The notes below the pieces were generated by a model, which was not told the DNA's origin, did no database searches, and saw nothing but the letters and a program-made list of their open reading frames with translations. Source: Gnetum montanum (Eukaryota; Plantae; Gnetophyta). From it: a stretch of DNA of 64,000 bases. Below are positions 2,016 to 63,330 of this stretch, piece by piece; the stretch's first letter is position 1, and each line of letters opens with the position of its first letter. The stretch is from the NCBI GenBank assembly GCA_015680685.1, contig MNCI01000690.1, positions 274,487 through 338,486 of the forward strand, written 5' to 3'. The translations under genes and the position numbers were made by a program.

Positions 2016-2637
2016 GTGCTTGCTCCTACCAATTTAAACCAAGAGCAAAGTGAGTGACTCTTGCTTGATGAAGGATCATTTAAGTGTAAACGGGCATTAG
2101 ATAACTAATTTATGTACTAATGAAATTGTAGAATGTAACGATCATCATGGCAGTTTTAGGCCATACTGGGCCATGTGATATTCATGTTAACTTGTCATTC
2201 TAAATGAGTGTATGCAGTATTTTTGATTTTTAAATTTTTGTGTGAACAATAATTTTACGAGGCTTTAAAATTTTATGGATTTTATAAATATTCATATATG
2301 TATATATATATATATATATATATTGATTTTAACTTTTCATCCCTTCCTTTGCATAATAATAACTTTCTTTGGCTTCATCTCCAGAGGCTAGAATGATGAG
2401 GAATATAGACCAACATAAAACAAAGATGACATAAATGAAAACAAATTTTAAACATGGTGAAATTTAAATAAAATAAAATAAAATAAAATAAGAGAAAATA
2501 AAATAGAATTTTATGGGTTTAAAAGGGGGTTTTGAAGTGAGGGGAGGGGGTTTTTTGCTACGTGAGTTCTTGGACTGCAACGACTCTAGGAGTGCAGCAT
2601 GAGCTATAGTGTCAACGTCAGTGTGAGCAAGGCAACC

Positions 2638-7924: not shown

Positions 7925-8165
7925 CTAGTTTAAAGCCATTTCGAGCTATGCACATTAGTTTAAAGTCGTGGTGGACTGTTGCATCTATTGTCAAAGAAAG
8001 AAGGATTACCAATTTTATGCCATAGTGAGCCAAAAGAAACAACAGTTTTAGAAAGCTTTTAAGAGGAACCGACCATTTCTGACCATGGCTAGTTTATCAT
8101 CATTGCAAATGTTCGCTGGTAGTTTAACATCATACTAGATAATTGGTAGTTTAATGTCATTCCGA
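7925..8165 (-). repeat. Hairpin-TAAACTRG motif copies downstream of the element A gag-PR stop
   Basis: On -: AGCT-CGAAAT-GGCT-TTAAACTAG, AGTC-CACCAC-GACT-TTAAACTA and several degenerate copies. Confidence 0.7.
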
Positions 8166-8182
8166 ACATTTAGTGATTCGCT

Positions 8183-15259: not shown

Positions 15260-15680
15260 ACCAGTTTATAGTCTTAGTGAACCGTTGTGGGTTAGTTTCA
15301 CATCATAACCCTTTGGACAATGTCAGTTTAGTGTCATAGCGGATGGTGCACTACTAGTTTATAGTCATAGCAGAAGTGAAGAGGCAAACCAGTTTATAGT
15401 CTTAGTGGACTCTGGATGCTAGTTTCACATTATGGCAGATGGATGTGGTAGTTTAGTGTTGTACCGGATGGAGCTCTGTGGTGTCATTTTATTTTCATGA
15501 CTCCAGGACATTTCTGTGGTGCCAATTTCAAGTCATAGGCCTAGGACCGTTCTGTGGTATCAGTTTTAAGTCATGATGCCAAGATCATTCTGTGGTATCA
15601 GTTTTTTAAGTCATGATGCTAGGACCACTTTGTGGTATTAGTTTTAAGTCATGATTCCAGGACATTACGTACCTTAGTTT
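15260..15680 (-). repeat. ~30-35 bp degenerate tandem array (hairpin + TAAACTRG) after the A' integrase stop
   Basis: About a dozen units containing yagttta(t/a)agtc on +. Confidence 0.85.
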
Positions 15681-15889
15681 GATTAGACATAGTACCGTTT
15701 CAGGTATAGATGATTTGTAGGGTTAGCGAACTCGTTCACGTCCATGTCAGCAAGTTTGCATGCTCCATTATTGTATGCCTTGGTGACTAAGTAAGGCCCT
15801 TCCCAATTGGCTGAGAATTTTTTTGGATGTTCACGGATAGCCTTAAGGACTAAGTCTCCTTCTTTAATTGGGCATTTATGCAGGTCATG

Positions 15890-25203: not shown

Positions 25204-26260
25204 CATGGGAGAAGGTTCCCTCCTATTAAATTAACCTTCAAATCCCACTAAATCAAAATATTATAAAAAAATAACCAATATGTTAAAAACAAGAAACTAG
25301 TTATCTTTAATTAATATAATAAGGATTACAATCAATAGTTTTACAAACCACAAACATTCAAATCCCTCAAAACACTAAGATGACATTGCAAAGTAAAAGG
25401 CTCTACAACCAAATAGTAATTGTTCTCAATGTAAGGCACAACCAAATGAGATCTCTTCCACAAACATAGGATTGAGGTTCAAAACACACAAGAACATAAG
25501 AGACACATAAGTCAAACATGTATAATTAACATTGGAGCTATAACCACATTCTTCTACTCTCATAATGTGCTCTCATATAATCATCATCTTTCATCCATCA
25601 TGTCAAAACATGAAACACAATAATATTTTTTCCAAAAGCAAGATAAGAAACCTAGAAACCTTTTCCTGAGCTCAACTTGAAATTTTTTAGCTATTTCTAT
25701 CTTTTTCTCTTTTCATAGTTTTTTTCCACTTTGGAACTACCACCTTAGATCTTTTCTTAACCATATGGGTCATCTTTGGACGTTCAAAGATGTCTTCTAC
25801 AAAATCCCAACATTTTGATGAGATGTCTCCTAAGGATGTAAGACATCTCCTCTAGTAGTGAAATGTCTCACCTAAGATGTCTCCAAAAATTCTGGGATGT
25901 CTTCCCTAAGATATCTCCCAATAGGCTAAGATGTCTCCTTAGTAGCTGATATGTCTCCTTCACATAAGAGACATCTCCTATTAAATGTCAACTCTTAGCA
26001 AAGATGTCTCCCAAACATGTGGGATGTCTTTTATCACATCTCAATTCTTAGCCAAGACATCTCCTCAACCTCTAAGATGTCTTTCCAATACTCAAAACCT
26101 ACAAAAACCATCTATAGGAAAGAAAAAGAGAATCATAAGAGATGCTCCTATACCAACTCTTTGACCCTTCAAAAAGTGAACTCACTTGAATAAGGAAGTA
26201 GGGGTAGAATTGATCCCTGACTCGAAAAGTTTGGTATCATTCATCCATGCAACATCATCA
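25204..26260 (-). repeat. Element D 3' LTR (inner boundary approximate)
   Basis: First ~530 bp align by eye with 48526-49044 (e.g. tcctatta..ttaaccttcaaatccca; catccatcatgtyaaaacatgaaacacaataatattt). Confidence 0.8.
25775..26085. repeat. AGA(CG)TCTCC motif cluster in the D LTR
   Basis: Roughly 15 copies of agatgtctc / agacatctc / agatatctc. Confidence 0.8.
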
Positions 26261-29719: not shown

Positions 29720-30025
29720 ACCCAATTTAAGGTCTTGGTAGACCATCAGATGTACTAGTTTAAGGTCCTAGTAGACTACAATCTGCTAGTTTAAGGTCCT
29801 AGTGGACCACTATGCTAGTTTAAAGTCCTAGTAGACTATTGTGCTAGTTTATCGTCATAGCAGATAGTGGATGGGCCAGTTTAAGGTCGTAGCAGACCTT
29901 ATGTTCCAGTTTTACATCATAGTGGACAATCTGTGCAGGTTTATAGTCATAGTGGACTATCTCTACCAGTTTATAGTTATAGCGGGCTATCTGTGCCAGT
30001 TTATAGCCATAGTGAACTATGGATG
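29720..30025 (-). repeat. ~30 bp tandem array (hairpin + TAAACTRG) after the B integrase stop
   Basis: About 10 units such as ctagtttaaggtcctagtggacc and ccagtttatagccatagtgaact on +. Confidence 0.9.
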
Positions 30026-30042: not shown

Positions 30043-33000
30043 TCAGATGTAGTATGGCTTAAGGTACAAGTGGTTCACTAGATTTGTAAACTCTCTGCCA
30101 TCCATATCTGCTAGTTTGAAGGCTCCATTCTCATAGGCTTTGTGACTATGAATGGACCTTCCCAGTTTGCTAAAAACTTATTTGCATGTTCATGGAAAAC
30201 TTTGAGAGCTAGGTCCCCCTTTTTGATTGGTTGTCGATGTAGGTTGGAATGATGCTTTTTTCACTGCTTATTTTGGTACCATTCAATATGACTCAGTGTT
30301 TATGCACGCTTTTCCTCTAGGGAGTTGAGGTCCATGATCCTTGACTCATTGTTCTGGGCTTCGTTCATGATGCTTGAAAGGATCATTTGAAGTGACGGTA
30401 CCTATAATTCAAGATGTAACACTATTTCAAATCTATAAACTAGGCTATAAGGAGTCTTACCTGTAGCCATTTTGCACATTGTACGGTAGACCCATAGCAC
30501 ATAGAGGATTTGCTTGTGCCATCGCCTCTTACTATTGCTAAGCATCCTTTTAAGCAAGTTGATGATGGCCTTATTTGTTGCCTCTACCTGACCGTTTGCC
30601 CGCGGGTAGTATGGCGACGAAAAGGATTGCTTGATGTCAAGGTTGCTACAAAAGGTTTTGGTTTTTTCACTACTAAATTATGGCCCATTGTCCATCACAA
30701 TAGTCATGGGAAGACCAAACCTTGTTACTATGTTTTCTAAGATAAAGTGGCAAACCTGTTGGAATGTAGTTTTCCTAAGGCGGATAGCCTCAGTCCACTT
30801 TGTAAAGTACTGGGTGGTAATGATGATGAAGCTATGTCCTATGGAAGACTTAGGTGTTATGGGTCCTATGATATCTAGTCCCCATCGTTAAAATGGCCAC
30901 GTGATTTGTGTAGGGTGTAACTCAGTAGGTGAAACGTGTATAAGATTTGCATGATGTTGGAATATATCACACGTCCTAACTTTAGCAAGGCAATCTCATT
31001 CCATACAAGGCCAGTAATACCCTAGGCGTCTGATTTTAGCTACCATGGCCGTAGGAGCTATGTGTCCTCCACATAGTCCTTCATGGACTTCGTTAATGAT
31101 TTTTTGTGCCTCTTCCCCACCAACGCAAGTTAGCAATATCCCATCAAAGGATAATTTGCATAAGGTATTATCTCCTACAAGGACATACTGCCATGCTCAC
31201 TTTCGGATTGCATCCTTTTGGGTGGATGTCAAGCTTTGTGGGGGTTCACCATGTTGAAGGTAGGCTTTAACATTAGCATACCACTCTTGGGCATTGGTAG
31301 TGCTTACAGAGGCAATGTGTACCACTTGAGTGATAGGATCTATGCATTCTGTTATTGAAGCAGGTAAATTTGCAAACAAGTGTGGTGGCACGTTTAATGC
31401 TAACATGGCTAAGGCATCTACTATAGTGTTCTCGTTGCATGGCACATGCTGGATATCTATCATTGTGAACTGTTTCAAAATTTTTTTGGAAAAATCACAA
31501 TAAGGTTGTAAGTGTGAAGCTTTACATGCATAGATTTCAGTGATCTGGTTGATGATGAGTTGGGAATCGCCTCGAACTGCCAAATGTTGGATCTTTAATT
31601 GATGGGCTACTAAAAGGCCTATAAGGAGTCCTTTGTACTCAGCTACATTGTTTGTACAAAGGAACATAAATGGTAAGCAAAAGGTTGAATGTCCCTTGAG
31701 GGGAATGTAATGACGGCGACAGAACTACCACCTCACGTGGTTGAGGCGCCATCAAAATGCAAAGTGGCCTCGAAGTGCAATGGCATAGGGTTGATGTTGT
31801 TAACATGTTCTTTGGGGAATTTTGATTCTATCATCACCTGATCATCGACTGGTGAGGTCATGAGCTGCATAGCTATTGCTTGTCCTTTCATCGATGATTG
31901 GGCTACATAGTGTAAATCGAATTTCACTATTATAGCTTTCCATTGAGCTATCTTGTTGCTTTCATATAAGTTGTTCATGATAGCCCGGAGTACGTTGCTC
32001 TTGCATATGATGTTAACCTGGCTACGGAACAGGTAGTGTCTCCACTTTTTTAATGTAAATACTAGGGTGAGACAATTTCTTTCTACTTCATTGTATTTTT
32101 CCTCATAAGCTATCAGTGCATGGCTCAAGTAATAAAGTGGGATTTCAGAGTCATCCTCTCTTTTCTAGCATAATAGTGCTACAATAGATGTGTCTGAGGT
32201 GGCAAGGTAGATGTAGAAAGCCTTATCCCTCTATGGTAGGTAAATAATTAGGAGGTGTAAAAGCTCTTTCTTTAAGTCATCGAAGGCTTGTTGACATTGT
32301 GTTGTCCACTTGAAGTTAACCCCCTTCTTTAGTAAGTGTTGCATGGGGTGTAACTTGTCGGTCAACTTTGCTATAAACCTTTTGATAAACTATATTCTAC
32401 CTTGCAACCCACGTAATTCTTTAAGGCTGGTAGGGGGTGCTAGGTTAATGATGGCCTTAACTTTGTCAGGGTCTACTTTTATTCTAGCCTCTGATACTAA
32501 AAACCCTAGCATGCGTCTAGTTTTAACTCCAAAAACACATTTCTTTGGATTGAGACATAAGTCATGCCTGTGACAATGCTTGAGGACTATCATTGGGATG
32601 ATCAATAGCTCTCTTAGACTTGATTGCTATGTCATCCATGTAATTGTTTAGTCTCTCTAGGAGGTAGTCATTGAATATGTACGTCATGGCTCATTGATAG
32701 GTTGCTTCGGTCTTTTTGAGACCAAAGGGCATCATAGTGTAACAAAAGGTTCCCCAAGGGGTCATGAAAGTAGTCGTTAACTGATTCTCTAGATTGATAC
32801 GAATTTGACTGTAAACCGAGAACCCATCCATAAAGGATAATAAAGCATGACCAGCTATAGTGTCGATAAGTTGATCAATACTTGGTAGTGGAAAGTCATC
32901 TTTAATCGTTGCTTTGTTTAGATCCCGAAAGTCGATACAAATTTGTATTCCTCCTGTTTTCTTAGAGACTACAATGATGTTTATTACCCACTCTGAGTAA

Positions 33001-33503
33001 TCAACCGCATGAATGAAGCCTACTTGATATAGTTTGGTAATTTCATCACGTACGGCTAGTGTGATTTCCAGTTTAATTTTTTGAGCCTTTTATTTGACTG
33101 CCTTGATACGCAAGTCTAAGATAATGTTATGTTGTATGAGTCATGAATCTAAGCCTGACATGTCATCATAGAACTAGGTGAGCACTTTGACATTGTCTTA
33201 GAGGACTTTAGATACATTCTTTTGCATTTTTGGATCTAAGAGGGAGATAAGTTTTAATGTCTTTATTTCCCCCCTAGATGTAGTTATAGGTATTTCGATG
33301 AGAGGGTCCTCAATCACGTCCCCAACCTCTAAGTCTAATGCTTGGACCAGATGTTCGAGCTAATCTAGGGATGTTTCCAGGGATGCTACAATGTTATCAG
33401 TGGATGATTCCCAATCTATTGACTCTAAGTTTAGATGTCTTGCAAGCTTTCCATGAGGACCTATCAAGGTTAAAAGTGAATGTAGATCACGCTGCACGGC
33501 CAT
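30043..33503 (-). pseudogene. Element B pol: RT - RNase H - additional (archaeal-type) RNase H - integrase
   Basis: KDDFPLPSIDQL, FMDGFS, MPFGL, YMDD, LNPKKCVFGV; KYNEVERNCLTLVFTLKKWRHYL; LHFDGAS...TNNVAEY.GLLIGL...GDSQLIINQ (aRH); HEGLCGGH, YYWP, WGLDIIGP, YFTKWTEA, ANWEGPF. Confidence 0.95.
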
Positions 33504-33634: not shown

Positions 33635-33950
33635 CTTACCAGTTTAAGGTCTTGATGACTGTGAATGGGTTTGAACATGCAAGGGATATTAACTTTGCCA
33701 GTTTAAGGTCATGGTGGACCGTAACATTGCGAAATCTAGTTTAAAATATGAAATGGATACTAAGGCTGCCAGTTTAAGGTCATGGTAGACCATACTCATG
33801 CTATAGTGTACATCAAAATGTAAATTGAGGTTGCTAGTTTAAGGTCTTAGTAGACCATTAACAGGTGGATTTTGAGAACTAAGGTCACTAGTTTAACGTC
33901 TTTACAGACCATGGTGGGTAGGCTTTGTAAAGATAGGTTGCTAATTCAAG
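33635..33950 (-). repeat. ~60 bp-spaced hairpin-TAAACTRG copies upstream of the B pol splice acceptor
   Basis: ccagtttaaggtcatggtggacc-type units at ~33639, 33698, 33769, 33834, 33888. Confidence 0.8.
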
Positions 33951-34244: not shown

Positions 34245-37200
34245 ATGGCACCCAAAGACAAATGCAAGCACTAAGGACTTGCTAACGTGGATGAGGTAAA
34301 GGACACTTTGGGACACCTATCCAAGGTGCATGTTGAAGTGTGGGAGGAGGCTCTGTTTGCTTAGTAAGTTGCTACACTACCCTTATTTTTTAGACCATAG
34401 TAATTGTTATTGTGATGAAATCCATGTCTTTTGCGATTGTTTTGGTTGCCGTTTTTGCTGCTATGCCATCACTATTGCTGGTTCGCCAAAATGGCTGTAG
34501 GGACATTACTCTATAGCTACATGCGGTATTGCCTCGACCGCCATTGTTGTGACTACCTTGTTGTGGGGGTTTGGGTGATTCTAGATAGCTTAGCGCATGA
34601 TTAGAGTAGCGTACCATCCTCAGGAGGGTTTAGCCATCTACGAGATTTGACAACATGACACGTGTTTAACATAGTGTAGCATGAGTTATTTTGTATGGTA
34701 GAAGTATGGTTGAGATGGCTATAGCATAGTGAATTCTTTCTTATCTAAACTTTGTAATGTTTTTATTACACTATTTCGGTATGTCTTAAGGTCTTTAGGT
34801 TTGTCGCATTGCTATGTTGTTGAATCTGGAACACCGCTACATTGTTGAATTTGTTTCTGTTAAGTTTGCTACGTTGCCATGCCCGTCATAGTAATATGTT
34901 AATTACATTATTATATTGTTGCACGTCTATCTGTTCTTGTTCATTTGCAACATCACGTGTCATGTGTTTGCATCTAAGTGTTGTTACGTTGTGCGAGGCT
35001 TGATGACTATGCTACACTGCAAGTATCGTGTTGCTACATCACCTATGATTTTTATTCTATTTTTTTATTAGAGAGAGATTTGCAACTAAGAGATCATGTT
35101 ATGCTACATGCAAAGAAAGTGTCATGCTACGCTATATGTACACAGTGCTAACGTTTGATGCTTCATTGTGCAGGGTCATGTTGAAGCCCATTCTGATTGT
35201 CTTGGAGATTGTGGGAGTCCTGTGCTGCCTTAGCAAACTGATGGCCAATGTCACTCCTCCCCATGCACGTGTGGGACGATAGGTAGTTTGGTTCTGAGAG
35301 GGCACATGGGACTTCCTATAGTTCCTCCTCCATCATTTTAGTATGATTGTTTGGTCACACTTATCAGCAGAGATAGTAGCCGCAATCACAGAAACCCTGT
35401 TTCCTAGGGCAAACTAGGGCATTCTGAAATTTTTAACTAATGGATCAATCGGGGGTGATCAGGAAAAAGGTTCCAACTAGTGCCCAAAAGGCTTAAGATG
35501 CTTAAGTTAGATTTAGGAGATGCCTAAGTATAAGTGCTATCACTTATACAACACATTATTCGTTGCCCGTCACATGGGCACTTACTTTTAGTACCCACCT
35601 GGAACCATTTATAATGCTGGTGGGTGAGCTCTATGAAGGTATTTGATCATGTTGTGTAATCCATGCTACACTAGACATAGGTATTAATAGTGTGTATATA
35701 TATATATATATTTATGTGTGTTTCCAGGTTTTTTATTGATAGAAGTGGTCTCCACAGTGATACAGATGCCTTAGCATTAGCACAGATAGCCCTGCGGGAG
35801 TTTTCCTCTACTAGGAATGTGCACGATTACATAATAGGCCAATTTGGGGGTGAGTTAAAAACCCATCCAACCTGGTATTCCCAATTTTATGGGAAGTGTA
35901 AAGAATCTAGTTGGTTGGATAGGGAGTGGGCCTCCCTTAGGCCGCTCACCATTGAAGACATGTTGGTGGATCTCCCACCATTTTCCATGCCATTTAAACC
36001 TGGTACGCTAAACTATGAATTCACTATTACATGTTCGAGTGATGTTTATTTTTTTGCTAACTTTTTTCTTTTATTTTGCAAACCGTTTCAATGGCAAGGA
36101 AATCCCAAGAGGTAATTATGATCACCTTCGGGCACAACGAAACCAACCTCTTTTTCAAGTATGGGGAGGTGGAGGAGACCTAGCATTGGTTCTACAATGG
36201 GACCCCAACCACGCTTGTCTACAACCTTCAGGAGGTTGGGCTCATGAACTTATTTTTGATCATCAACCCAAACGTCCTACCTACCAAAATGCTTTCCCTA
36301 GCCGACTCCTTCTCCAAGAAAGTGGACTGCTTCCACACACGTGTTCACGGTGTGCAGGTGGTGTTTGAAATCAACAACCAACTGTTTATGAATCTTTTCA
36401 GTGTCCCTTCTAATGGTCTCCACGTAGGAGAAAAATCTAAGAAAGATGCAAACTATTAGGGGGACATTGAGGAGTGGCTAGGGGCGGCAAAGGACCAAAA
36501 GGGGATCTACATTGAGAAGGTCAAACTATAGGTGGCCAAAATGATTTACCCTGTTTTCCATGCCCATGCCTTCCCCAAGCTACTCTCTCAAGGAAAAATC
36601 CTTGGAATTGAGTAGGCTTGGATAATGAGGGATGCTATGGAAGAGGGGACTCACTACAATTGGATCAAATACCTGTGCAAAGGCTTGTAGGCTAAAATGG
36701 TCAAGCGTCGCGGGAAGCTTAAGTCCCGCTTCAATGTGCACCATGCCTTCTTTATATCATACTTGCAGCATTTTTTAAAATTTTTGGTAATCTGTGAGAA
36801 TGATGTCTGAGTGCTACAAGACCGCAACTAGATTTCCAAGTCGTGGATTTGCCAAGTCTTTCGTACCACCTGATCTCAAGACCCCCTGGAAGCTATTGGG
36901 GAATCATTTTCAATGACGACCAAGGATCAGGTGGCACACAACTTTTGTGCCTAGGAACGTGGGAGAGGCACCCTCCATTACCATTAGTAGTGTGACAAGG
37001 GGAGAACACCTCATTGCAAAGATGGTGACAACTAAGTTGCAATGCAAGAGATCTCTCCCAACCAAGGAACTTCCTCGCACAAATGAGGAAAGAGGGAAGA
37101 AGCTGCGGCTCAAACTTTGCAGAGTGCAGCCTCCGATTGGTAAGTTTTTTTTTTTTTTGCTAATACTTACTACATTGTGCTATGCTAGATAGCATTACAC

Positions 37201-37656
37201 AGAGTAGCTTTTATTCCAAGTTAGTATATCTTGCCTACTGTAACCATGTTTTATTAGTAGAGGAAGAAGAGGAAGAAGGGGAAGAAGAGGTGGTGGCCCC
37301 TACAATAGGGGTGACTGGTGAAAACGAAGAGGCTCCGGCCACAGAGGAAAGGGCCCCAACTGATGAAGAAGGGGCCCCTATTGTAGAAGAAGGGACCTCG
37401 ACTGGTGAGGAAGAGGTTCCTACTGATGAAGAGGAGGCCCCTGCCAACAAAGAAAGGGGTCCAACCAATGAGGAAGAGGCTCCCGGCAATCCGAAAGAGG
37501 CCCCTGCTAATGACCCTTTTGCAGAGAGTAGTTAAGTACCAAAGGGGAACATGAGTATTGAGGAAGCTACTATGTTATTGGGTCAGCTGGAAGGAGAGGG
37601 GCTCCATTTTGACACTGGTGATTTTGACAGCAGTTTTAACAGTGTGTCGGTGGGCG

Positions 37657-37693
<37 letters not shown>

Positions 37694-38980
37694 NGGTAGG
37701 AGCTTTACACTATCATTTATGTTGTTCATTAGCTTTATCATGGTTCCTCTCCACTATGGCTAACACATTTTACTATGCAGCTGATACCACTATTGATACC
37801 TCTGGCCCTTCCTCGATCTACTTGTGATCGTGGACCAAGACCCCCGATAAATTTACTTTCATGGAGGGGGTGGTTGATGACATGATCGATCGTCTGAAGC
37901 AGATCAACTCAGAAGTACGTAAGTTAAAGTTGCTATGATAGACTCTCTAAATTGTTGTTGCTTCATTATGCCACTGTGACTAATGCCTTTCTATGTGTGG
38001 TTGCCAGCCTCTCACCTTAAGTGGGACCCTAAGCACATGGTTGAGGTTGACACTGTGCCCGAATTTCCACCGGAGGTGATCGAAGTACCTCGTCACATAT
38101 ACAACAAAGCAAGCTAATGTGCACTGTACTCAGCATGCTCCTTGTGGGAATGTAGACATGTGAACGAAAACCTCTAAAAATGGGTATAGAGGCTTGAGAA
38201 GGAGAAGGCCAATTTGACTGCCAAGGTGGAAGATCTCCAATCCAAGAATGAATTCCTGTTGGCCTGAGACACTAAAAATGGTAGTTGGCGCATAACTGTC
38301 ATCGACTACACAAGGTATTTGACAACCGTGTGATGTAACAATGAGGCCACTCATGAAATAATAGAAGAGTGCATGTAAATGGACCTACTAGCCTAGAAGA
38401 ACCAAGACTTGAAATACTATAGTGCAAAGGTTTACGAGTTGGGGTAGGCACAGAAAAACCATAAACACATGTATAAACTAGAACGTGCCACCTACCGTAA
38501 ACAATATTGGGATGCCTCTGTCAAGTTGCATACTTATGAGGTATTCCTTCACATTATTGGTGCTTCTGGGGCTTACGATAGGTTTATGCAATAGGTGACA
38601 GTCAGTGAATCTCCCAAAAGGGAAATGACCTTTCCCACGGGTGAGACCACCACTGCCACGTTTTTTTTAGGACCACTGAGATGGACAACCATAGAAAAGG
38701 AGAAAGTTGTAGCAAGTGCTGATCTGGGAGATAGGAATTGGGCTGATATTACAAAGGAGGAGATCTTGCAACATCTTGCGACAGGCATGGATCAGATACC
38801 CCCTAAAACAAATGTGGGGCTGTCTCGGGTCAATCATTTTTTGGTGTTGTGATAATTTATTTTATTCGAGTCCTTATTGTAGCTTTAACTGACTATTTCA
38901 TTTTCCCTATGGTACAGAATCCAGATGAAAACACAGGACCTAATGAGGCAGGGGACGATGAAGCAGGCGAAGGGTCATAG
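34245..38980 (+). pseudogene. Element B antisense 8-exon accessory gene
   Basis: TATA (CTATAAATAGG ~34102), ATG 34245, introns ~34364-35173, 35624-35727, 36003-36081, 37140-37260, 37696-37780, 37919-38007, 38814-38917. Same exon order and peptides as in A and C. Confidence 0.8.
37320..37515 (+). repeat. 21-bp coding minisatellite (EEAPxxE) in the acidic exon of the B antisense gene
   Basis: NEEAPATEERAPTDEEGAPIVEEGTSTGEEEVPTDEEEAPANKERGPTNEEEAPGNPKEAPA. Confidence 0.85.
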
Positions 38981-39164: not shown

Positions 39165-39300
39165 TTAGTTTTAGGCCATTTCGGGCCATAACAATAGTTT
39201 AAGGCCATTCTGGGCCGTTGCTAGTTTTAGGCCATTTCAGGCCATTACATGATGGTAAAGAAAATTTTTTTGCCAGTTTTAGGCCTTAGTGGGCCGTGGC
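39165..39300 (-). repeat. Hairpin-TAAACTRG copies after the B gag-PR stop
   Basis: Four units; on - GGCC-CGAAAT-GGCC-TAAAACTA and variants. Confidence 0.8.
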
Positions 39301-39452: not shown

Positions 39453-42400
39453 TCATTCTAGCAATTGCTTTCTAACCCATCGTGGGCTCGGTGATGCGTA
39501 AGGCCAAGGGGCTTTGTTGAGGTATTCCTCTATTTCATTATCTATCGCTTGAAAAGGTAATTCATCCCATGTAGTTTCATTTTTTGAGCCAACATTTTGG
39601 GCCAGCTCATTTGCCAAACAAGTAGCTTTGGTGGAGATAGGTACTTCATTTTTAGAGGTTATTACTTCTAGACCTTGCTCCATGTTGACATTGTTTATTG
39701 CTTGGGTGGCCACTTCATCACCGTAGATCACCACTTCCCTGCCCACATAAGGTAGATGGATTTCTTGATGTATGCGTAAAGAGATGGCCCTAAGCTGGGC
39801 TAACCATGACCTCCCCAAGATCAGGTTAAACCCAAGTATCTCTTCTACCACGATGAATGTTGCACTTGTGGGAAACTAATCCCCTGCCACAAAGTTAATG
39901 TGGACAGTCCCCTTTACCACCACCCACACTCTATTGAATAACTTCAGACATGAGGTTGTCGTGGGTTTGATTTGATCCACCAAATGGGGAACGAGATGAC
40001 ATTTGTAATAGCCCCATCATCAACATGTACTCTTCGGATCTTGTGCTGACCAACCCAAATCATGATGAACAAGGGTGCCATTGTGTCCTGGCCCTTCTCA
40101 GGGTCATCCTTGATGGACTCATCACGGAATGTCAACTGAGCTAGTTGCGGTTCTTTGGGCATAGAAGGAAGCATGACCGCATGGATTTCTTTCTCCTCTG
40201 CCAGCATGTTTTTGTTAACTAGTATGGACGCTAACATGCAAACCAAGGCCTTGTGATGTACAGTGGAGGTCATTACCAAGTTGTATAGGCTCAAGGTTGT
40301 ATTCTTTTCTTTCAGAGCTTGTTTGACTTGAGTAAGGGTGTTTAGGAGGTCTTGTCCACTTTCTTGTTTTTTTCCGCCCTTCTCTTCCTCCATTCGTCCT
40401 AGAAGACAAATTTTACAAGAAGGATCAATTTTAGGTGTGGGGCTAGACCCTTTTGGATGGGATGGCGATGATTATGTGCACGTAGTGGTGTCAACTGTTG
40501 ATGATGAGGGGGATGTAGACACAAAGGATGAGGGGGTAGGCTTAGGGGGACTTGGGACGGTATGTTCGTTGGCTGTTTCGTCTATCAAACACTCTTCCTG
40601 TTTTGTTGAATGGGAAGGCTATCATGTCATCTTAGATTGGCTCTATGTGATGGGGGCCATTGAGTGTTTTGGCCCCTTAATGACAAATGGTGATTATGGC
40701 ATTAGCACGGGCAACGATGTAGTTTTGAATATAAAGGGTGCAAGGGCGGATGTCTGAGGGGGAACCTTGAGAACAAATGGTTGTTGTGGCATATTTTTTG
40801 CTGTTGTTGGTGTTGCTACACTACGTTGAGGCACACAAACCACAAATGGCTACTGTGGCAGTTCTGGATTACTATCTACACCAATCGTGTTGATAATGTA
40901 CCTCGTGTTATTAGCATTGAGGGGGTCCTTGTAGATGTGCATGGATTTATTTTTAGGGCAAACAAGGTTGCTTTCATCCAAAACCAACTTCCCCTGATCA
41001 ATCATCCGTTGGATGTCATCTTTTAATGCTAGACAGTAATCTGTGTTGTGACCACAAAGTTGATGGTAGTCACAAAACTGCTCTAGCCTGAAGTTCTTAG
41101 GAACTGGTAGCTCATTGGGCATAGCTAAGGAGGGGTTCCTAAGGAGTTTGCAATACCGCTGATGTTGTTTAGTCACCTCCTCTAACATCCTTTTATGTTC
41201 AATATACCCAGCCCCCAACAATTTCTTTAGGAGTTTTGAATGCTTGACAGGTAAGGAGGTGTATTTGGAGTGATCTTTACGCTCAAAGTTGGGTTTAGGC
41301 TGGGTAGATGCCTCTGGTGCTGACGTGGAGGGTTGGGCAACATTACTTGAGCTAGGCATGGGGTTAGTTGATGTTGTGGCTACCTTTTTGTTATTGTTGC
41401 TGTTGGGCTTTGCCTCATTTGTCACAACAGCCACCGTGGCCATTGCAGCTTTGCCCTTTTCTTTGTCTTTTTTGGTATATGCATTTTTGTACGCAACATA
41501 GGTCGAGTCTTTACTGGCTTTGGTTGCATCTTGGATGCTCTTCGTCTAGGAAAAAGCTTGACTAAGAGAGCATGGGGCTAGGTAGTACAGCATGGATTTG
41601 ATGAAATCATTTACCGCCCCCTTGAAGATAGCCAGCAAATGAGCCTCCGCGATAGGCACACGGATCTCATTCAAGGTAGCACTCCACCACTGTATAAACT
41701 TTTGCACCGACTTTAGCGGGTCTTGCTTAACGCCCATCAACTGATCCAACATGACTTTGGGCATCAAGTTATACTTGAAGCGAGTCACAAACTAGGTCAG
41801 CAGCTCTTCCAGTTTTGAGATGGAGGGGCGTGGGAGCCCATGGTACCAATCTAAAGCTTTTCCCATCATAGACATAGCAAAGACACAAATAATAGTGTGC
41901 AACCACTACTGCAACAACAAATATTCAAATCTAAACGTGACTAAATATGCATTAGGATCACCCTCCCCATTGTATTTTGTGAATTGGGGGAGTGGCATCC
42001 CAGGAGGTAACATGAGCATGGGAACAACCAGGCTGATGGGGTCATCATGGTAGAAATCCCTGACCTGCACTATGTCAAAATTGATGACTTTGAGATGTTT
42101 AATCTCTTTAGTGAGGGTCTAGATAAGTTGGAATGCTTGGTCTAGACCCGGAGACGGCGTAGACAGTTGCGAGGTTGCAGGGGCAACCATCATTGGTGAC
42201 ATAGTAAGGATAATGGCCTGTCTCATAGAGGGTGCCATTAGGGCTACCCTTGTGAAGGGTGTTACCTATGAGGTTCACCACCTACTAGGTGATGATGTTG
42301 GAGTGACGGCTGCTAGTGGTGCTATAGGGTTAGTCATTTACATGATTGATGGGATGGGCCATAGTCCCACGCTTGGTTGTGACACTTGCGGGACTTGGTA

Positions 42401-43490: not shown

Positions 43491-44710
43491 TATAGCAACA
43501 GAAAACATCAGTGGCTAGAAACACCAAGAGGTCTTCGGGAGCACAGCCTAACCACAGATCTGTGCAAGGGCCATGCTGGAGAGAATGGATTCAAGGTGCC
43601 CTAAACGGTCTGGTCAATTAGATAGGGACTTAACTAATGTACAATAACCCTTTTGCAAAAAATGATTTTAAATGGAACACCTGGTGGTAAAATAAAAGAA
43701 AATGTAATGTGCACAGCAGTAGAAACGTGCTAAAGCATGTAACGGAACAATGGACATGATTGAACGTTTGACAATCCCAAAAAATAAATGTTGTAATCAG
43801 AAAAAAAGAGAGTTTGAATAGGAAGATGCACCACCCCAAAAAAATTGTACAAGTATACAGAGTATACAATAGGTGTAGTAGGAGCACAGTCACAGCCTCG
43901 ATGGTGTCAAGCGGTGAAATATAGTGCTCATTGTGAAAAAATGTGCTTGCTGGGTCGATAGTCATAATGTACTATGCGATGTTCCACTGGGCTGCAATGG
44001 GGCTGCAGTGTATGGTGCAGTGTAGTTGTGCCTCTCTGTCAGTGTGGTGTGCTTTGGGTCTTGTTCGTCCACGTAGCTAAATGCTAAGATGCCAAAATGG
44101 AAGTGCCAACTGCCTTGCTAGTGAAGAAATGGAAGCCTCCCCCCCTTTCGCTCCTCTTTTTTCAAAAGAGAACGTCGAGGTATTTATAAGACTAGGTTTA
44201 GCCCAAATTGCGGATCAGGTGCCATGTGGCAGCGTGGTGGGTGGGACCATGCTATCTGCTATGCTCGTCCCATGTTATGCATGGAACATGGGAAACTGGC
44301 TGCAACATTGGACATGGTGCTACACAGCGTGACAGGGTGCTACACTGCACAGTGTAACAAGGTGTTACGCTACGCTACACTATGCAGTGTAATAGGATGC
44401 AGCGTAACAGGGTGTTACGCTACACTATGCTATGCATCGTAACAGGGTGTAGCGTAATAGGGTGTTACACAACGTAACAACGCATAATAGTGCGTAACAG
44501 CACGTAACAAGGTGTTACACTACGCTACGCTATGCAGCATAACAAGGTACAACATAATAGGGTGTTATGCTACGCTACGCTATGCAGCGTAACAATGCGC
44601 TACGTGACACTACGCTACGCAGCGTAATAGGGTGTTGAAAGTGCCATTGTTTTAACACTTAGCCATATTTGCAGTCATGATGCCGAGACCTGAAATTTTG
44701 TGGTGTTTCA
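43491..44710 (-). repeat. Element B 5' LTR with GTTACGCTACGCT/AGCGTAAC array (44320-44630)
   Basis: TGAAACACCA start, TATA (TATAAATA ~44185), U5 end homologous to 27038-27180. Confidence 0.85.
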
Positions 44711-48525: not shown

Positions 48526-49044
48526 TGTTAGAGTAGGTTCACTCCTATTAATTTAACCTTCAAATCCCAATAAATTTAGACATTATGAAAAATAATTAGT
48601 ATGCTAGAAAATAAGAAAACTAGCTATCCTCAATTAATGTAATGCAAATTATAATCAATGAACATCCAAATCACTCACAACACTCAAACAACATTTTAAA
48701 GCATGAGGCTCTATAATCACATAGCGATTATTCTTAATGCAAGATACAACTGAATGATATATCTTCCATAAACACAAGGCTAAGGTTTAAAACACAGAAC
48801 AACATAAAAGACATACAAGCCAAACACACACAATTTACCTTGGAGCTACAACCACATTCTTACACTCTTACAATGTGCTCTCATCTAATCATCATCTCTC
48901 ATCCATCATGTTAAAACATGAAACACAATAATATTTATTGCAAAAGAATAAGAAATCTAGAAACCTTTTCCAAAGCTCAACTTGAAAATTCCTAGTCGTT
49001 TATATATTTTCTTATATTTTTCTAGTTTTTTTCTACTTTGGAAC
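48526..49044 (-). repeat. Element D 5' LTR, interrupted by element C
   Basis: Alignment to the 3' LTR ends at ttggaac, immediately followed by TGAAACACCA. Confidence 0.85.
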
Positions 49045-50845
49045 TGAAACACCATGAAATTTGGGCTATGACATCTTGACTACAAATTTTTCTAAGTTTC
49101 AGCATGAGGCAAATTTTTTGCTAAGTGCTGGGACTATGCTCTTCACTACACCAAAGTGTAGTCAGCCTAGTGAAAAGCATAGTTCACTCTAAAGAAAAAA
49201 TTTGTGCAATTTTGTCTAAGTGTTAATGTGAAGCAAGAAGTTGCAAATTTTTCTAAGTGTTGGAACTACACTCTCCACTACATGGGAGTGTAGTCAACTC
49301 AATATAGAGTTTAGCCAATACTAGAGGCCAATTTTGCAAACTTTCCTAAGTGTCAAGCTAGCAATTATAGAGCTTGGTTGGCATGGAAGAAATAGTTTGG
49401 CAAAGACTACGATCTTCACTACATCAAAGCATAGTCAAGCCTAATTGGGATGGAAGAAATACTTTAGCAAATTTTCTAAGTGCTGAGACTATGCTCTCCA
49501 TTGCCTGGGAGCATAGTCAAGTGTATTCAGCACTAAAGGCTCAGTTTTTTGTAGTTTTTTCTAATTGTTGAGACTACGCTCTCCACGACCCTAGAGCATA
49601 GTCAAGTGTAGTCAACTGGAAGCTTGATTTCTACAAAAATTTCTCTAAGTGCTTGAACTACACTTGACCCCAATTGGAAGTGTAGTCAGCCTCCCCTAGA
49701 GCATAGTCAGCACATGGCTTAGAATTTTTCTAAGTTTGGGACTACGCTCTCCCCCAATCCAGAGCATAGTTAAGTGTAGATAGCCAGAACAACCTCTAGA
49801 AGCCTCCACAATGTAGCACCAACATTCACATTAGCTCCAACACATCTTTGGCAAGTAGCATGCATCCTTTTAGCATCCCCCTTTGTCCAAAAATTGTAAC
49901 TACACTCAACACCACTCGAGATAGTGGACAATGTAGTCCTAGAGTGTAGTCTCCAAAATTGCATTTTTATTTTTATTTTTGCATTTTTGTTAGGTACATT
50001 GTAGTCTTTTTAACACATGAACATGTATTTGGTAGCATAGTCATAGTCTAGCAGTCTTGTAGAGTCCATTGGAGCACACTAGAGCATAACACCATTTGCT
50101 TCAATGGAGAGCATAGTTGGGTATAGCATAGTCCCAACCATCCCACTACCACATGGCAAATAATCCACATTTTCCACTAGCCCTAGCCCTATAAATCCCC
50201 CAATTCTATATGTTTTAGGGGTTGGAAAATTTGCATTTTAGGAATTTTGGCATTTGGCATTCTTAAAGCACAGTTGGCATCTCAGTAAGGTAAGACATTC
50301 ACTCACCACCACAGTCCACCACAATCCACTATAGACCACCGCAGTCCATTGCACCCTATGATGGCCAACCCAATAGGCACAAACACCATGGCAAAACATT
50401 TATCCTCATGGCCAAACACCCTAAGACTGTGACTATGTTTTCTATAGCGCTTGTTATACATTGCATACCTACCTCATCCCATTTGTTGTTAACTACGCTC
50501 AACCCCATTTAGGGTGGTGCTGCTTTCTCTCTCACTCTCATATTGTGCATTTGTTTAGCATTTTACTTGCATTCTTCACTATTTTTGCATGTAATCATGT
50601 GTTGACACCTTTTTTTTTGGTGAAAACCCTTAACTATACTCACCACCATTCACACCGTGAACACTACACAAACACTTAGCATCATTACGGCATTGCATTC
50701 CATAAGCCTCTGTTTGATCGACAATATGTTTTTGGGCACCCCACCTCCACCTCCAGTAGGCCCTCACATAGACGCAAGGTCAAAGTTGTGCACTTGTGAA
50801 CCTCTCGGTGTTTGGTTCCAACCACCAATGTTTTCGATCACTAAA
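49045..50845 (+). repeat. Element C 5' LTR with ~60-bp units (TTTTCTAAGTG...GACTACGCTC...GAGCRTAGTC) at 49085-49780
   Basis: TGAAACACCA start, TATA CTATAAAT ~50190, followed by GTTTT and PBS remnant ..TGTTAGAAGGAGG at ~50852-50867. Confidence 0.85.
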
Positions 50846-55309: not shown

Positions 55310-55510
55310 TACATGGCTCGCCATGGCCTTAAACTGGCAATGTGTGGCCCACCATGGCCTTAAACTAGTAACTCACTACCTAAAATGGCCTAAAACTATC
55401 ATCACAGCCTAAAATGACTTTCAACTAGCACCTTTTATTCCATCATCGTGGCCCAAAATGGCTTTAAATTAGCATAGGCCCTCCCACTATGGCCCTAAAC
55501 TAGCATGGGC
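55310..55510 (+). repeat. Hairpin-TAAACTRG copies after the C gag-PR stop
   Basis: GGCC-CACCAT-GGCC-TTAAACTAG, GGCC-CAAAAT-GGCT-TTAAATTAG etc. Confidence 0.8.
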
Positions 55511-55756: not shown

Positions 55757-58700
55757 TTAACCAGTGGTACTAGGTGGTGGAGGAGTTCCTTCTTCCCCTG
55801 TTGCACCACTAGGGCCCGTAGCATCTCCTAGTACCTGCTGCTACAACCACAACAAAACAAGTAGTCAATAAGTAGAACCTATACACAAGCTAAAACAAAA
55901 CATGTAGAAAAGCAAATAAAGAACTAACCTGAGATTGTCCCACATCGACATCATCTAGAGGCAACTTGTCAAGGCCATCCTCCAAGCATTAAAGGATCTT
56001 AGCCTCTAAAAGCTTCATCCAATCATCCTAGCCAAAGTCAATCCCCACAAGGGTCTTACTTTTGTCCATGGCGGTCCATGTGGGTGGCTCCATGGAAAAG
56101 GTAGTAGAAGACACCTCTCCTGAAGGGATGACAATCTACCTCTCAAGAGAGCCACTCACCACTATATGTTAAGGAAACAACTTGTAAGCCTATCTTTCAT
56201 TATTTACCTCAAGGAACATCTCAAGGCAATGGCATTCAACAAAATCCTCCTTGTACCATCGAAGTTTTGCATCATACTTGCACTTATATTGGTGCTTGTA
56301 GTTCTTCTAAGTCTATCCCCACTTGTACACCTTAGTGCTACAATTTTTCTAGTGCTAGTTTTTCTAGGCAAGTAGATCCATCTGCAACCACTGCTTGATT
56401 ATCTCTCGCATGGCTTCATTTTTGCCTCTAAGAGCTAACCAATAACAAGCATAGTCTATCTTAGAGGTCCTCCAAGTATTATCCCATTGTGACCTAGTAG
56501 ACAGAAAATCATATCAAAATTGAAGATCCCAAATCTTCGTGTCCTAGCTGGTCACTTGCTCTTGGAGCTTATGCACCCATTTTCATAGGTGCTCATTTGA
56601 GCACCTATAGACCCACAATGCTTTGGCATAGGAAAATGTGCACTTGCTCACTATCTCGTACATGCGATGAGACACCTGATCTACCTCAAGAGGGAGTTCA
56701 AGGAGGGCATCCACCTTCACCACCTTAGTTGGATTTCATTGAAGCTTGAAACCTATTAGCATGCAACAAGAAAATCAACCTTAGCTTTCGATCAGTAAAG
56801 AAACATAGCAAACATACTGAGCTTGGGATCTATCTATTGTAGGTGGTCAACCATGTCCTACATAATGCCTTCCATGAAGGAAAATTTGTCACGCATGTCT
56901 ACCCATGGCTTCATGCAATAGGTAGATGTTGGACCATTGGCAAGCACATTTGAAGCTATAACACAATGATGCAATTAGCATACAATCAAATAGTTGAAGG
57001 TGCTAGAGCAAAAAGGGTAATAATAAATGATAACACAAATGACTTATCTAGCAATCCCTTAGGTGTGAGTGCAAGAGGGTCACCCAGCTATACACCATCA
57101 AATAGGCAATCAAAATCACCCCTATTGGGGTGGAGCAGCCCCTCCTCCTCCAACTATTGGAGGGCCTCTACTACACTAGGTAGCTCATCTCCATGAGCTT
57201 CCTTCTCGTCAGTTTGGGGAGTTGCTTCTTCTACTACCACTTCTGCTACTACTTCAACAACTTCTCTTCAATCTCTGCAATCAACATATACACACCTTAG
57301 CAAAAGCATAGTAGCATAACATAACATAAAAACATGAAAACATAAACATATAATATACAATAAATGCATCAAGCAAGTTACTCATACTAACCTACAACCT
57401 CCACATGCAAGCTTTGAAACTTGATGTGGATTTTCTTGCTACTTGGCCTCCTAGCCTCAGGTGCAGCCTCCTCTATAGTGTGTGGCCTCTTAATCTTTAC
57501 CTTGGATAGTCCCACCATCTCTACAATGTAGTAGTCCACCTTAGCCATGTTCCCAATGCCAACTAGGGGTGCCTCACCTACATTATCATGTGAATAGTGT
57601 GACTGCCCCATGGGACCTTTGGTCATTACTGATAATGACTCATTGATCTCCTCCGAGGGGTCTTATCCCCATGTGCTCATGAATAGATGCTTATTCCATG
57701 GCTTTGAGAGCTACTCATGGTCTTGCACCACCCAACGCCCACCATCAAGTATGACCAAAAGCTCCACAAACCTTCATAAGTACCCTATGAAGAATGTGAA
57801 GTGAACATGGGATCTCACCTAGATGTTAAATCTTAGCCATGAGATCTCCGCATGCAAGCCAATCGCAATATAGGTAGCCCAATTGAACCTTGTGCCCTCT
57901 AGCAGCACCTCTTTCATCACCCATGCCTACTCCACCCCAAATATCTTTCCTTAGGAGAGTAGCTTCAAAAAGGCATGGGCACATAAAAAAGGATAGAGCT
58001 CTCTCACCTTGGGCATAAGCATGCCCTTGATTGGTATGCCCTTATGAGATCGAATGACACCAAACCAATCCTCGATCTCCCCTATGTGGTCCACCTCCTT
58101 GCTATCCTTGTTAACAATTAATAGGCCATCAGTGGGAAGTCCAAAAAGATTGGCAAAGAAGGCCTCACCAAGGTTAGGAACTACCCTCACACCACACACG
58201 GGGGTGACAAACTATCGAACATCACTGCTGAAGGAGTTGATCATGGTAACCATTTTGACCACCAGAATACTTGGGCTAAGGGCCAAAAATAGGTCAATCA
58301 ACCCTGCATGTGTGAGCCTAATGGTTAATGCATCTAAGGCCTTGTGGCACAATGAATGTTGTGTACCCTCTACATCACCATATTTCATGATGAGGGTGGC
58401 CTCTATGTGACCTATGGTGACCACTGTCACCTTGCTTGAAGTAACTATTGCTACAACAAAGGCAAAGCAATGTTAACATCATGCAAAACACAAACTAATG
58501 GGCAAACATGAGCAAGCACATGAGCTAAAACATAAACACTTACATGGCACAAATGAATTACAGACATCTCATCAGTGTTAATCATACTAATGGCCCACTT
58601 CTCATCCAACCAATCATGGGCCTTGCACCACTCATGTGCCCTCGGTTAGTGGGTGGGGTAAGCCTCCAAATCAAACCCCACCTACTCAAGCATAGCTTCC

Positions 58701-61163: not shown

Positions 61164-61703
61164 CTTGGCTCCAACTACACTCTCTACTGGTAGCATAAAA
61201 TGACTACAATGACAAGTCTATGCCCTAGATTTCATGTTTTGCAAGTTTGAAAATGACAACTTACCCATATTGAAACATGCTTTTATACCCTCCCAGGGTC
61301 ATTTAATGACTCACCAACCTAGAACTACACTTCACACTTAGCCAAAATTCTCAACTTTTGGTGGGAGCATAGTTGGATAAGAGCGTAGTCACTCACACTT
61401 ATCCAAAATTTTCAACTTTTCATTGCTCAATCAATGCCTTAGCCAATTTCACTTTTTGATCACAGCCAACCTTTTCCAAACTAATACCTTTGATGCATCC
61501 ATGGTTTTCTTAGACCTAAAACTAGCATGCACAACCTATTAAGGCCCAAAATTGACACACATACATGTTTACCATTCTTTATAGCCCCTATTGCATACTT
61601 GGGAAAATTTTCATTACATTACTTTTTATTCATTTATGCATGTTAACTTGGTTGCAACAAGTGTCACTTAATGTTTTGTTGGTTTGTTTTGCAAGAATAC
61701 GAC

Positions 61704-62820
61704 ATGGCCATGCTTGAGCAGCTTCTCTCTCCTCTAGTTCTCATAGGACGTCATGGTGATATCAAGTGATGCATTAATCCACATTGCCTAGACCTTGAGC
61801 CTACAACTTATGCTGAATACATAGCATCTATAGAGACATCGCTAGATTGACCCTACATGGAGCACGATTTCATCTCCAAGGTCATAACATGCAACATGTG
61901 TCAACAACATGGCAACTTAATGCATGTGCCACCAACTAAACTACAGACAACATAGATCACGTGGTCATTCCAATGTTGGGGCTTGGACATCATTAGACCT
62001 ATCATGTCTACGTCCTTCACAGGGCATAGCTTCATCATAACTGCAACTGAGTATTTTACCAAGTGGGTTGAGGCTATTCCCCTTAGGAAGATAAGATCAC
62101 AATAGGTTTGCAAATTTGTGCTTGATAACATAGTGATCTATTTTTTTTTTACCCATGACCATAGGCACAAACAATGGTTCACAATTTAGCAATGCTAAAA
62201 CAAAAGCCTTTTGTGAGCACCTTGGTATTAAACACTCCTTCTTGTTGTCGTACTACCCCCAAGTGAATGGCCAAGTAGAGGCCACCAACAAATTCATTGT
62301 GAACCTTTTGAAGAAAGTGCTAAGCAACAGTAAATGATGATGGCATGAGCAACTAGTTTGCACACTCTAGGCCTATTGCAGAACATGATGAATAGCAACA
62401 GGTAAGACGCCTTACAATCTTATCTACATATCTGAAGCAATTTTGCCCCTTGAATTGTAGGTTCCATTACTCCAAGTGATCCTCTCAAGCTTCATTAATG
62501 AAGATTAGAATAACGAGTTGAGGACCATAGACCTTAACTCAATAGAGGAGGAGCACATGCAGATGCTTGATTGCATTGAATGGTACCAAGAAAAGCAATA
62601 GCAAAATCACCATCACAACCAGCATCAATGCTTGATCAATAAAGGGGTCCTAGTCCTCAAGGTCATTTACAAACCCACAAATAAATTCTCAGTCAACTAG
62701 GAAGGGCCTTTCTTGGTTACTAAGGCCTATGACAATGCAGCATTCAAGATTGCTGATCAAGATGGCAATGAGTTTTCCAATCCAATGAACCATTCATACC
62801 TAAAGTTTTATTATGCCTAG
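61704..62820 (+). pseudogene. Element C pol leader fused directly to integrase
   Basis: MAMLEQLLSPL...ETSLD*P|YMEHDFISKVITCNMCQQH...WGLDII..EYFTKWVEA...YYPQVNGQVEATNK...EGPFLV...FYYA*. Confidence 0.9.
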
Positions 62821-62854: not shown

Positions 62855-63330
62855 CACAAGTCCACTATGACTATAAACTAGTGTAGAAAGTTTTCCATGA
62901 CTATAAATTGGCATAGCACAAGTCTACTACGACTATAAACTAGCATAACACAAGTCTGCTATGACTACAAACTAGCACAGTATAACTCTACTATGACTAT
63001 AAATTAGTGAAAAAAGTCCACTATGATTTTAAATTGGCACAGCACAAGCCTGCTATGACTATAAACTAGCATAGCAAAAGTCCGCTATGACTATAAACTA
63101 GCATAGAAGTCTGCTATGACTATAAACTGGTGTAGAAAGTCCACTATGACATTAAACTAGCATAGAAACAACCTTTCATCTACCATGACATAAACTGGCA
63201 CAACTCATCCTTGGGTTATGATGTTAAACTAACACAATAGCATTCATTCACTACGACATTAAACTAGCACACAATAGTCCACTAGGACTATAAACTAGTT
63301 CACCATAGTCTACCAAGACCTTAAACTGGG
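62855..63330 (+). repeat. ~30-33 bp tandem array AGTC-CACTAT-GACT-ATAAACTAG after the C integrase stop
   Basis: About 15 units directly visible. Confidence 0.95.

Follow-up and report, generated by a model that had tools for sequence, protein, structure and literature searches.

Arrays of a coremin-like predicted RNA pseudoknot in decayed Tat-type retrotransposons of Gnetum montanum as candidate exoribonuclease roadblocks

The stretch of DNA analysed here (64,000 nucleotides of Gnetum montanum, contig MNCI01000690.1, positions 274,487 to 338,486; hereafter the window) holds a nested assembly of decayed plant retrotransposons, in which the longest open reading frame comprises at most 231 codons, CpG stands at 0.27 of expectation and all element copies are dead. 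A Pfam scan of the 203 stop-to-stop fragments of the window located a protease in element A (minus strand, 8537-9037), the order RT-RH-aRH-INT in element B (minus strand), and gag together with integrase in element C (plus strand). An additional RNase H between RH and INT defines the Ogre/Retand order (PMC6317226), which has also been found in conifer II and gnetophyte Tat elements (PMC13468544). Element B carries this domain between RH and INT, as is characteristic of the Tat clade, and the repeat arrays described below belong to decayed Tat-type Ty3/gypsy elements. The integrases of the window are about 35-45% identical to their best relatives; among A, B and C, the coding DNA is about 64-68% alike. 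The family is present in high copy number, two DNA runs each supplying about 25,000 contigs that match a stretch of 1.5 kb. The coding features of the elements are the following:

3842-7361 (plus strand), 35169-38849 (plus strand) and 55959..58412 (minus strand): antisense coding regions of the spacers, with 35-47% identity between the copies of A, B and C, the last of which is decayed
30043..33503, minus strand: decayed pol of B, with Pfam RVT_1, RT_RNaseH, RVT_3, Integrase_H2C2 and rve in order, i.e. RT-RH-aRH-INT (Tat type)
61704..62820, plus strand: decayed pol remnant of C, recognised by Pfam rve at 62137-62334 and by translation
62818..62820, plus strand: integrase stop codon of C, 38 nt upstream of the first repeat unit

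The spacers between gag-PR and pol extend over about 6 kb and contain the antisense coding regions common to A, B and C. In legume Ogre elements, gag-PR and RT are separated by an intron that is short (mean 274 bp); in this respect the window elements fall outside Ogre. Pfam returned zero families at cut-off for the antisense spacer proteins, one segment of which presumably resembles an FCP1/NIF phosphatase-like domain. Moreover, pol may possess its own start codon instead of being fused to gag-PR. B, in turn, seems to be nested inside another gypsy element, which is devoid of the repeat units.

Several further observations concern the same region. The pol frames at 2015 (minus), 33503 (minus) and 61704 (plus) all open with ATG-GCC, about 10 nt upstream of which lies an AG that follows a T-rich stretch, and in C the candidate ATG (61704) leads almost directly into the integrase zinc finger, with RT, RH and aRH apparently deleted. 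Direct repeats that are 78% alike (25209-25738 and 48531-49045) enclose RT/RH (45.6-46.4 kb) and an integrase SH3 domain (26.3-26.7 kb), while a fragment of a plant resistance-type LRR gene (566-1006, minus) adjoins the truncated pol of A. Other repeats, tandem or dispersed and unrelated to the unit under study, occur at 44349-44627, 11987-12095 and 49098-49689 (50-nt, 14-nt and 68-nt units).

The unit itself spans 23 nt and combines a short hairpin with a conserved tail. A profile built from the window retrieved 50 units of at least 12 bits, against 0.7 expected (maximum 3) from 30 dinucleotide shuffles, and all 50 lie on the sense strand of their elements, A/A' and B on the minus and C on the plus strand. 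They form nine clusters, situated after the three gag-PR stops, after the three integrase stops and before the three candidate pol starts, as listed here together with weaker and long-loop units:

2150..2172, minus strand: single unit of A, 134 nt before the candidate pol ATG (2015)
7925..8168, minus strand: 6-unit array of A, 14 nt past the gag-protease stop (8183-8185)
15261..15441, minus strand: six-nt-loop array after the A' integrase, with 4 units of at least 12 bits and 1 weaker unit
15475..15666, minus strand: 38-nt-period array of degenerate long-loop units of A', directly after the integrase stop (15683-15685)
29722..30018, minus strand: 10-unit array of B, beginning 24 nt past the integrase stop
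33639..33910, minus strand: 5-unit array of B, its last unit 135 nt upstream of the candidate pol ATG (33503)
39165..39295, minus strand: 4-unit array after the B gag-protease stop (39453-39455), found by profile
55315..55503, plus strand: 6-unit array after the gag-protease of C, found by profile
61503..61525, plus strand: single degenerate unit of C, 178 nt before the candidate pol ATG
62859..63329, plus strand: coremin-like predicted pseudoknot array after the integrase of C, with 13 six-nt-loop units of at least 12 bits and a period of 29-32
about 63206-63232, plus strand: one 10-nt-loop unit within the post-integrase array of C

An earlier note on this DNA had described arrays in a single orientation downstream of every gag-PR and integrase stop, and this description holds for all six stops and all 50 units; its seven example units are likewise present as written (62859, 33698, 55346, 39165, 7955, 7925 and 29815). 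The distance from stop to first unit amounts to 14 nt for A gag-PR, 157 nt for B gag-PR and about 310 nt for C gag-PR, the last figure depending on an uncertain stop in a broken frame, and to 24 nt and 38 nt for the integrases of B and C. Past the A' integrase stop, a 10-nt-loop unit follows after about 17 nt and the units with 6-nt loops after about 240 nt. The additional copies that had been placed before pol in A and B are indeed there, and C contains a previously unlisted one at 61503, so that all three candidate pol ATGs are preceded by units at 134-178 nt; the "pol acceptor" named in this connection is a sequence resemblance, and no splice junction was observed. Besides the 6-nt loop ascribed to the unit, loops of 8-10 nt occur too. 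The profile scan detected zero units of at least 12 bits in the other gypsy remnants of the window (16-27 kb and 45-50 kb). On its own, a constant orientation is weak evidence, since duplication in the course of reverse transcription would also preserve it.

Beyond the window, metagenomes were searched with a two-unit pattern in which the compensating columns were left open. Of the 25 loci found, 22 contain at least three units; the three loci with 0-1 units were left out of the counts, as was a duplicate contig. Eleven loci with one record prefix, termed F1, represent a non-coding LTR element. Its complete copy (L069:202-4573) measures 4372 nt, has 521-nt LTRs (502/521 identical) and a 5-bp target duplication, and carries 30 units, all on the strand of its purine tract, while stop-to-stop frames within the 3330-nt interior reach at most 111 codons. 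This copy adjoins BRCA2-like domains, and a related one (L076) lies near a fungal protein kinase gene. A second group of nine loci, F2, contains units near-identical to those of the window; its arrays (L058, L062, L066, L071, L078) are situated between two purine tracts, each followed by TG, in an element inserted in gypsy and copia. We take these tracts to be copia-like. From the neighbouring gypsy domains and the loss of CpG we infer a fungal host for F2, and the unrelated retrotransposons that carry the unit are probably fungal. Two further unclassified contigs (L065 and L061; 29% and 41% GC) also contain unit arrays, with all L065 units conforming to YGNNAD, and plant Tat arrays were not among the loci returned by the metagenome scan.

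The 23-nt unit is predicted to fold into an H-type RNA pseudoknot, in which the tail pairs with the loop. In this model, stem 1 comprises columns 1-4 and 11-14, loop 1 columns 5-6, and stem 2 columns 7-9 and 21-23, with column 10 unpaired and columns 15-20 (WWAAAC) forming loop 3. Covariation was assessed in a pooled set of 240 unique units (43 from the window, 130 from F1, 59 from F2 and 8 others; one unassigned window match was excluded). Among 741 column pairs, the highest APC-corrected mutual information was obtained for 8-22, 7-23 and 1-14, with 3-12 in fifth place; the top two pairs each connect a column of the loop with one of the tail. Columns 7-23 exhibit all four Watson-Crick types (129 pairs vs 59.8 expected), columns 8-22 pair in 90 units vs 56.5 expected (C-G 70, U-A 20; in addition U-G 26 and C-A 2), and 9-21 is A-U in 239 of the 240 units. 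The tail, to which the earlier note assigned no pairing, covaries with the loop and has to be redrawn as its predicted partner.

Permutation within arrays, whose members are kin, gave 0/5000 for each of 1-14, 3-12, 7-23 and 8-22 when all arrays were considered. In the window arrays alone, 1-14 was significant (15/5000), and 3-12 (655), 7-23 (433) and 8-22 (514 of 5000) were not. With an anchor that ignored columns 7, 8, 22 and 23, the signal persisted for 183 units with six-nt loops (101 vs 48.1 and 64 vs 41.5) as well as for 53 units with 7-12-nt loops, counted from the 3' side of the loop (33 vs 15.8 and 34 vs 23.5). For the 50 window units, the share of paired cells is 86.9% with the full pseudoknot and 85.3% with stem 2 alone, each outperforming 500/500 shuffles, which ignore kinship, and all slid registers; the latter yield 8-44% for stem 2, compared with 85% in the true register. 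Columns 3-12 are U-A in 33 and C-G in 12 cases, and 1-14 is altered on both sides in 19 of the 50 window units. G-C at 7-23, present in four groups, is one example of the compensated states that recur between separate arrays, and at two stem positions mismatched in the window copy most of the depth in two DNA runs carries the pairing letter. Extension of stem 2 to 6-24 and 5-25 found no support by permutation (1070/5000), and many units, mostly of F1, contain A-A, G-A or A-G in stem 2.

Pairs of the G-U type bear on the question of which nucleic acid is folded. They had been invoked in favour of RNA within the hairpin stem, where the counts do not bear this out (G-U 16 vs A-C 13 in 43 window units, 57 vs 89 in the pooled 240). 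The excess resides instead at 8-22, with 11 G-U vs 2 A-C in the window and 26 vs 2 pooled. It points to the sense RNA, because decay by context would hit the G of C8-G22 at least as often as the C. Moreover, the covariation of loop and tail is non-nested and the unit is present in RNA viruses (see below), both of which argue for RNA structure as opposed to a DNA palindrome; in this, the initial reading of the arrays as a multimerised structure of the sense-strand RNA was right.

In sequence, the units closely match the hexaloop coremin motif (xrRNA-C) with respect to stem, 6-nt loop and AAACU spacer, and they are coremin-like, i.e. a variant, rather than proven members; they are not xrRNA-WCC. 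Coremin is described as a hairpin of 3-4 bp with a YGAD or YGNNAD loop, a spacer with an essential AAACU-A and a second hairpin; it stalls Xrn1 as well as scanning ribosomes and occurs in repeats (PMC6546385, PMC10520033). The viruses named as its carriers are BNYVV RNA3, cucumoviruses and enamo-, umbra-, hypo- and chrysoviruses (PMC6546385, PMC10520033), and BNYVV coremin was reported to stall both yeast Xrn1 and plant XRN4 (PMC5869530). The units share with these descriptions the GUC/GAC-type stem of 3-4 bp with the same tolerated swaps, the loop of 6 nt that opens with Y, has A in fifth place and closes with D, the NN-AAACU spacer, the location on the sense strand after stops and between ORFs, and the tandem repetition. 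Accordingly, the inner three stem pairs are intact in 33/43 window units, a YRNNAD loop is found in 39/43 window, 122/130 F1 and 41/59 F2 units, and the AAACU core in 40/43, 130/130 and 58/59, respectively, the last count being partly by construction as these columns belong to the search profile. Placement agrees as well, with 50/50 units in sense and all 6/6 stops followed by units in the 3' UTR or intergenic position. One unit of F1 agrees with a viral unit at all 23 nt, four window units differ from viral ones at no more than two positions, and the window units closest to viral coremin reside in the array after gag-PR of A (7925..8168).

The published assays can be aligned with natural variation in the same register. 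A loop-spacer pseudoknot was proposed for the coremin-type motif, and its tested pairs 6-20 and 7-19 (PMC10321173) correspond to 8-22 and 9-21 of the window unit. The positions that were free in the assays (outer stem pair, first two spacer bases, middle of the loop) vary in the units, and the U-A to C-G swap that rescued stalling equals the natural swap at 3-12. As in xrRNA-WCC (PMC10321173), a canonical loop-spacer pseudoknot in the same register, with G-U tolerated at the first pair, is seen in the units; xrRNA-WCC as described there has a 4-nt loop with G as first base and depends on a G8-C18 pair, whereas 43/43 window units begin their loop with C or T, the corresponding pair 10-20 is Watson-Crick in only 4/43, and a third pair, 7-23, is added. 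Class 3 xrRNA (xrRNA-LT) of Tombusviridae/Solemoviridae is a pseudoknot-dependent nuclease roadblock of intergenic regions and 3' UTRs as well (PMC12397905), but its fold is larger and different (a P1/P2 stem-loop with a ring); the likeness to the units is one of function only, by analogy.

On the other hand, the units deviate from viral coremin in several respects. G at loop position 2 is found in 15/43 window, 92/130 F1 and 22/59 F2 units, compared with 64/65 viral ones. The full YGNNAD loop is present in only 14/43 window units, or 9/43 when loop, stem and spacer are demanded together, which speaks against the roadblock reading given below. Hexaloops beginning with CA or ending with C were described as not resistant in the viral context (PMC10520033), and window loops start with CA in 19, TA in 9, TG in 8 and CG in 7 cases, a distribution compatible with CG and then CHG decay. 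F2, with 35 CA vs 8 TG, is unlike decay, hence the A variant of loop position 2 may be native. In the 65 viral units, 7-23 lacks covariation (20 vs 17.6) and 8-22 is purine-A in 61, with F1 being similar; since viral and F1 units mostly depart from it, the canonical stem 2 is not universal. Column 22 is A in 27/43 and G in 16/43 window units, each G facing C or U at column 8. Within the window, units of the viral (purine-A) type account for 9/16 after the protease, while those with the canonical stem make up 21/21 after the integrase, so the post-integrase units differ from viral hexaloops by canonical pairs at Y8-R22 and 7-23 and often by A at loop position 2. A second hairpin is not evident downstream of the window units (27/43 vs 24.9 shuffled at 3 bp, 16 vs 9.4±2.5 at 4 bp), although viral units likewise show no excess by this test. 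Successive units are mostly 6-9 nt apart, compared with 2-5 nt in viruses, and small insertions between the coremin hairpins were reported to hurt stalling in vitro (PMC6546385). Finally, the host is a nuclear LTR retrotransposon instead of an RNA virus, and arrays reach 13-30 units, compared with at most 4 matched per RNA-virus locus.

As a positive control, the two-unit scan of viral contigs yielded 46 loci, and Pfam assigned the 42 scanned to RNA viruses (27) and DNA viruses (9), with 6 lacking a family. In 24 of the 27 RNA-virus loci the first unit lies at most 128 nt past a stop on the same strand, a placement like that of the window arrays. Contigs of DNA phages and giant viruses with coremin-like units, mostly between genes, were also noticed (L085, L089-L091, L097, L109, L112, L114, L118 and further L087/L088, L098, L099, L119, L123). 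The two-unit pattern retrieved 4 loci with zero full units from prokaryote genomes, and a three-tail pattern applied to viral contigs gave 53 unrelated short repeats, none of which scored as a unit. Rfam produced zero matches in the window at gathering scores and zero at E<=1 in five metagenome loci. Four Rfam matches on the array, including ToxI (E 4.9), were rejected as chance-level, and a hammerhead core, Helitron 3' end, m6A sites, U12 branch point, iron-responsive element and tobamovirus upstream pseudoknots were considered and dropped for want of a match.

With a probability of roughly 0.6, the arrays act as roadblocks to a host 5'-to-3' exoribonuclease on retrotransposon RNA, leaving protected sub-genomic RNAs. 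By analogy with the viral motif, we infer that the window units fold and stall like coremin. The nuclease, XRN4 in plants or Xrn1 in fungi, would enter after decapping, cleavage or co-translational decay, run up to the first folded unit and stall there. The RNAs left behind would be nested, beginning after gag-PR, just before pol or after the integrase, and would thus resemble the products of viral xrRNAs in intergenic regions and 3' UTRs. Repetition of the unit would raise the probability of stalling, and the next unit in the array might replace the second hairpin needed by the viral motif. The protected RNAs could serve as pol template, silencing decoy or nuclease sink. A nuclease that is conserved among hosts would account for a motif shared by RNAs of plants, of viruses and probably of fungi. 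Two RNA runs labelled as the same species contributed 206 and 83 reads, which exhibit no end pile-ups, although ordinary RNA-seq of such depth could hardly reveal them. For the functions suggested at first, i.e. NMD shielding, nuclear export or Gag packaging, the notion of an RNA element persists, yet none of the three is the best supported, and the pseudoknot and the match to coremin had been missed. The wider proposition that plant and fungal retrotransposons use coremin arrays as programmed XRN roadblocks, by which the decay enzyme carves pol-bearing and non-coding sub-genomic RNAs, is more tentative, and we put it slightly below even odds.

The same coremin-type fold could alternatively obstruct ribosomes, blocking post-termination scanning, re-initiation or read-through into the spacer or 3' UTR and possibly blunting NMD, which comes near the NMD shielding proposed in the earlier note. 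In extracts of rabbit and wheat, coremin does stall scanning ribosomes, and frameshifting is promoted by it as well (PMC10520033, PMC10321173); at four of the six stops the array starts 14-38 nt downstream; however, distances of 157-310 nt occur too, units before the pol ATG would hinder scanning towards pol, and the F1 element maintains 30 units although its 3330-nt interior is free of stop-to-stop frames above 111 codons, all of which renders this reading unlikely. A multi-site dock for Gag or an export factor, marking full-length RNA for packaging, would suit the non-coding L069 element, which with its 30 units fits a packaging parasite, and the fact that two of the three array sites fall into the gag-PR/pol spacer, an intron in legume Ogre elements. 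Nevertheless, the unit is common to Tat elements, to an element of another kind whose purine tracts are copia-like, and to 27 loci of RNA viruses, which lack Gag. A single element-encoded partner cannot explain this range, so that we regard such a dock as quite improbable.

Little credence is likewise given to the arrays being neutral tandem repeats, grown from a coremin-like seed (by viral capture or chance) through template switching in reverse transcription. Hypervariable 3' UTR repeats are common in Tat/Ogre elements and were proposed to be born from replication (PMC7004042, PMC11963269), many window units break the published coremin rules, and A-C exceeds G-U in stem 1. Neutral growth is opposed by the retention of arrays at the same three sites despite the divergence of A, B and C (coding DNA about 64-68% alike), by a core that stays constant while linkers and periods vary, by the recurrence of compensated states in separate arrays (G-C at 7-23, four groups) and by the pairing letters that prevail in DNA-run depth where the window copy is mismatched at two stem positions. 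Lastly, a regulator encoded by the element, for example the antisense spacer protein, might bind the array as double-stranded DNA, presumably in the manner of VANC-like anti-silencing. Stem 1 does constitute a spaced palindrome, conserved antisense proteins are encoded in the spacers, and those of Retand are predicted DNA binders (PMC11963269), but two interleaved sets of covarying pairs, the ratio of 26 G-U to 2 A-C at 8-22 and the presence of the unit in viruses without a DNA phase make this very improbable.

Tandem repeats beside pol have been described in Tat elements, their function being without a known answer in those accounts (PMC7004042, PMC11963269). The arrays of the window resemble such 3'-region repeats of Tat/Ogre/Retand elements as short tandem arrays beside pol, accompanied by long non-coding regions and antisense ORFs. 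The known repeats are portrayed as family-specific and highly variable (PMC7004042, PMC11963269; Macas 2009 as cited there), whereas the present unit is common to families and kingdoms, is found at three sites of each element and shows covariation in its fold. A literature search, with subscription journals largely outside its scope, returned no paper linking coremin or xrRNA to retrotransposons. Judged from sequence, a coremin-like variant of the motif known from RNA viruses appears here in a new class of host element, and with the roadblock reading at least one class of retrotransposon repeat obtains a concrete candidate function. Coremin was described without a solved structure, and its two middle loop bases were presumed to bulge out (PMC10520033). 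The natural variants compiled here, numbering in the hundreds, suggest that these bases pair with the spacer, and if so, natural covariation would fix the register of the coremin pseudoknot (7-23, 8-22, 9-21). Should the units indeed stall XRN4/Xrn1, nuclease-resistant RNA would not be restricted to viruses but would be carried by high-copy nuclear elements, such that nuclear genomes would encode functional xrRNAs in very many copies, with possible effects on pol expression, silencing evasion and the load on the host decay machinery.
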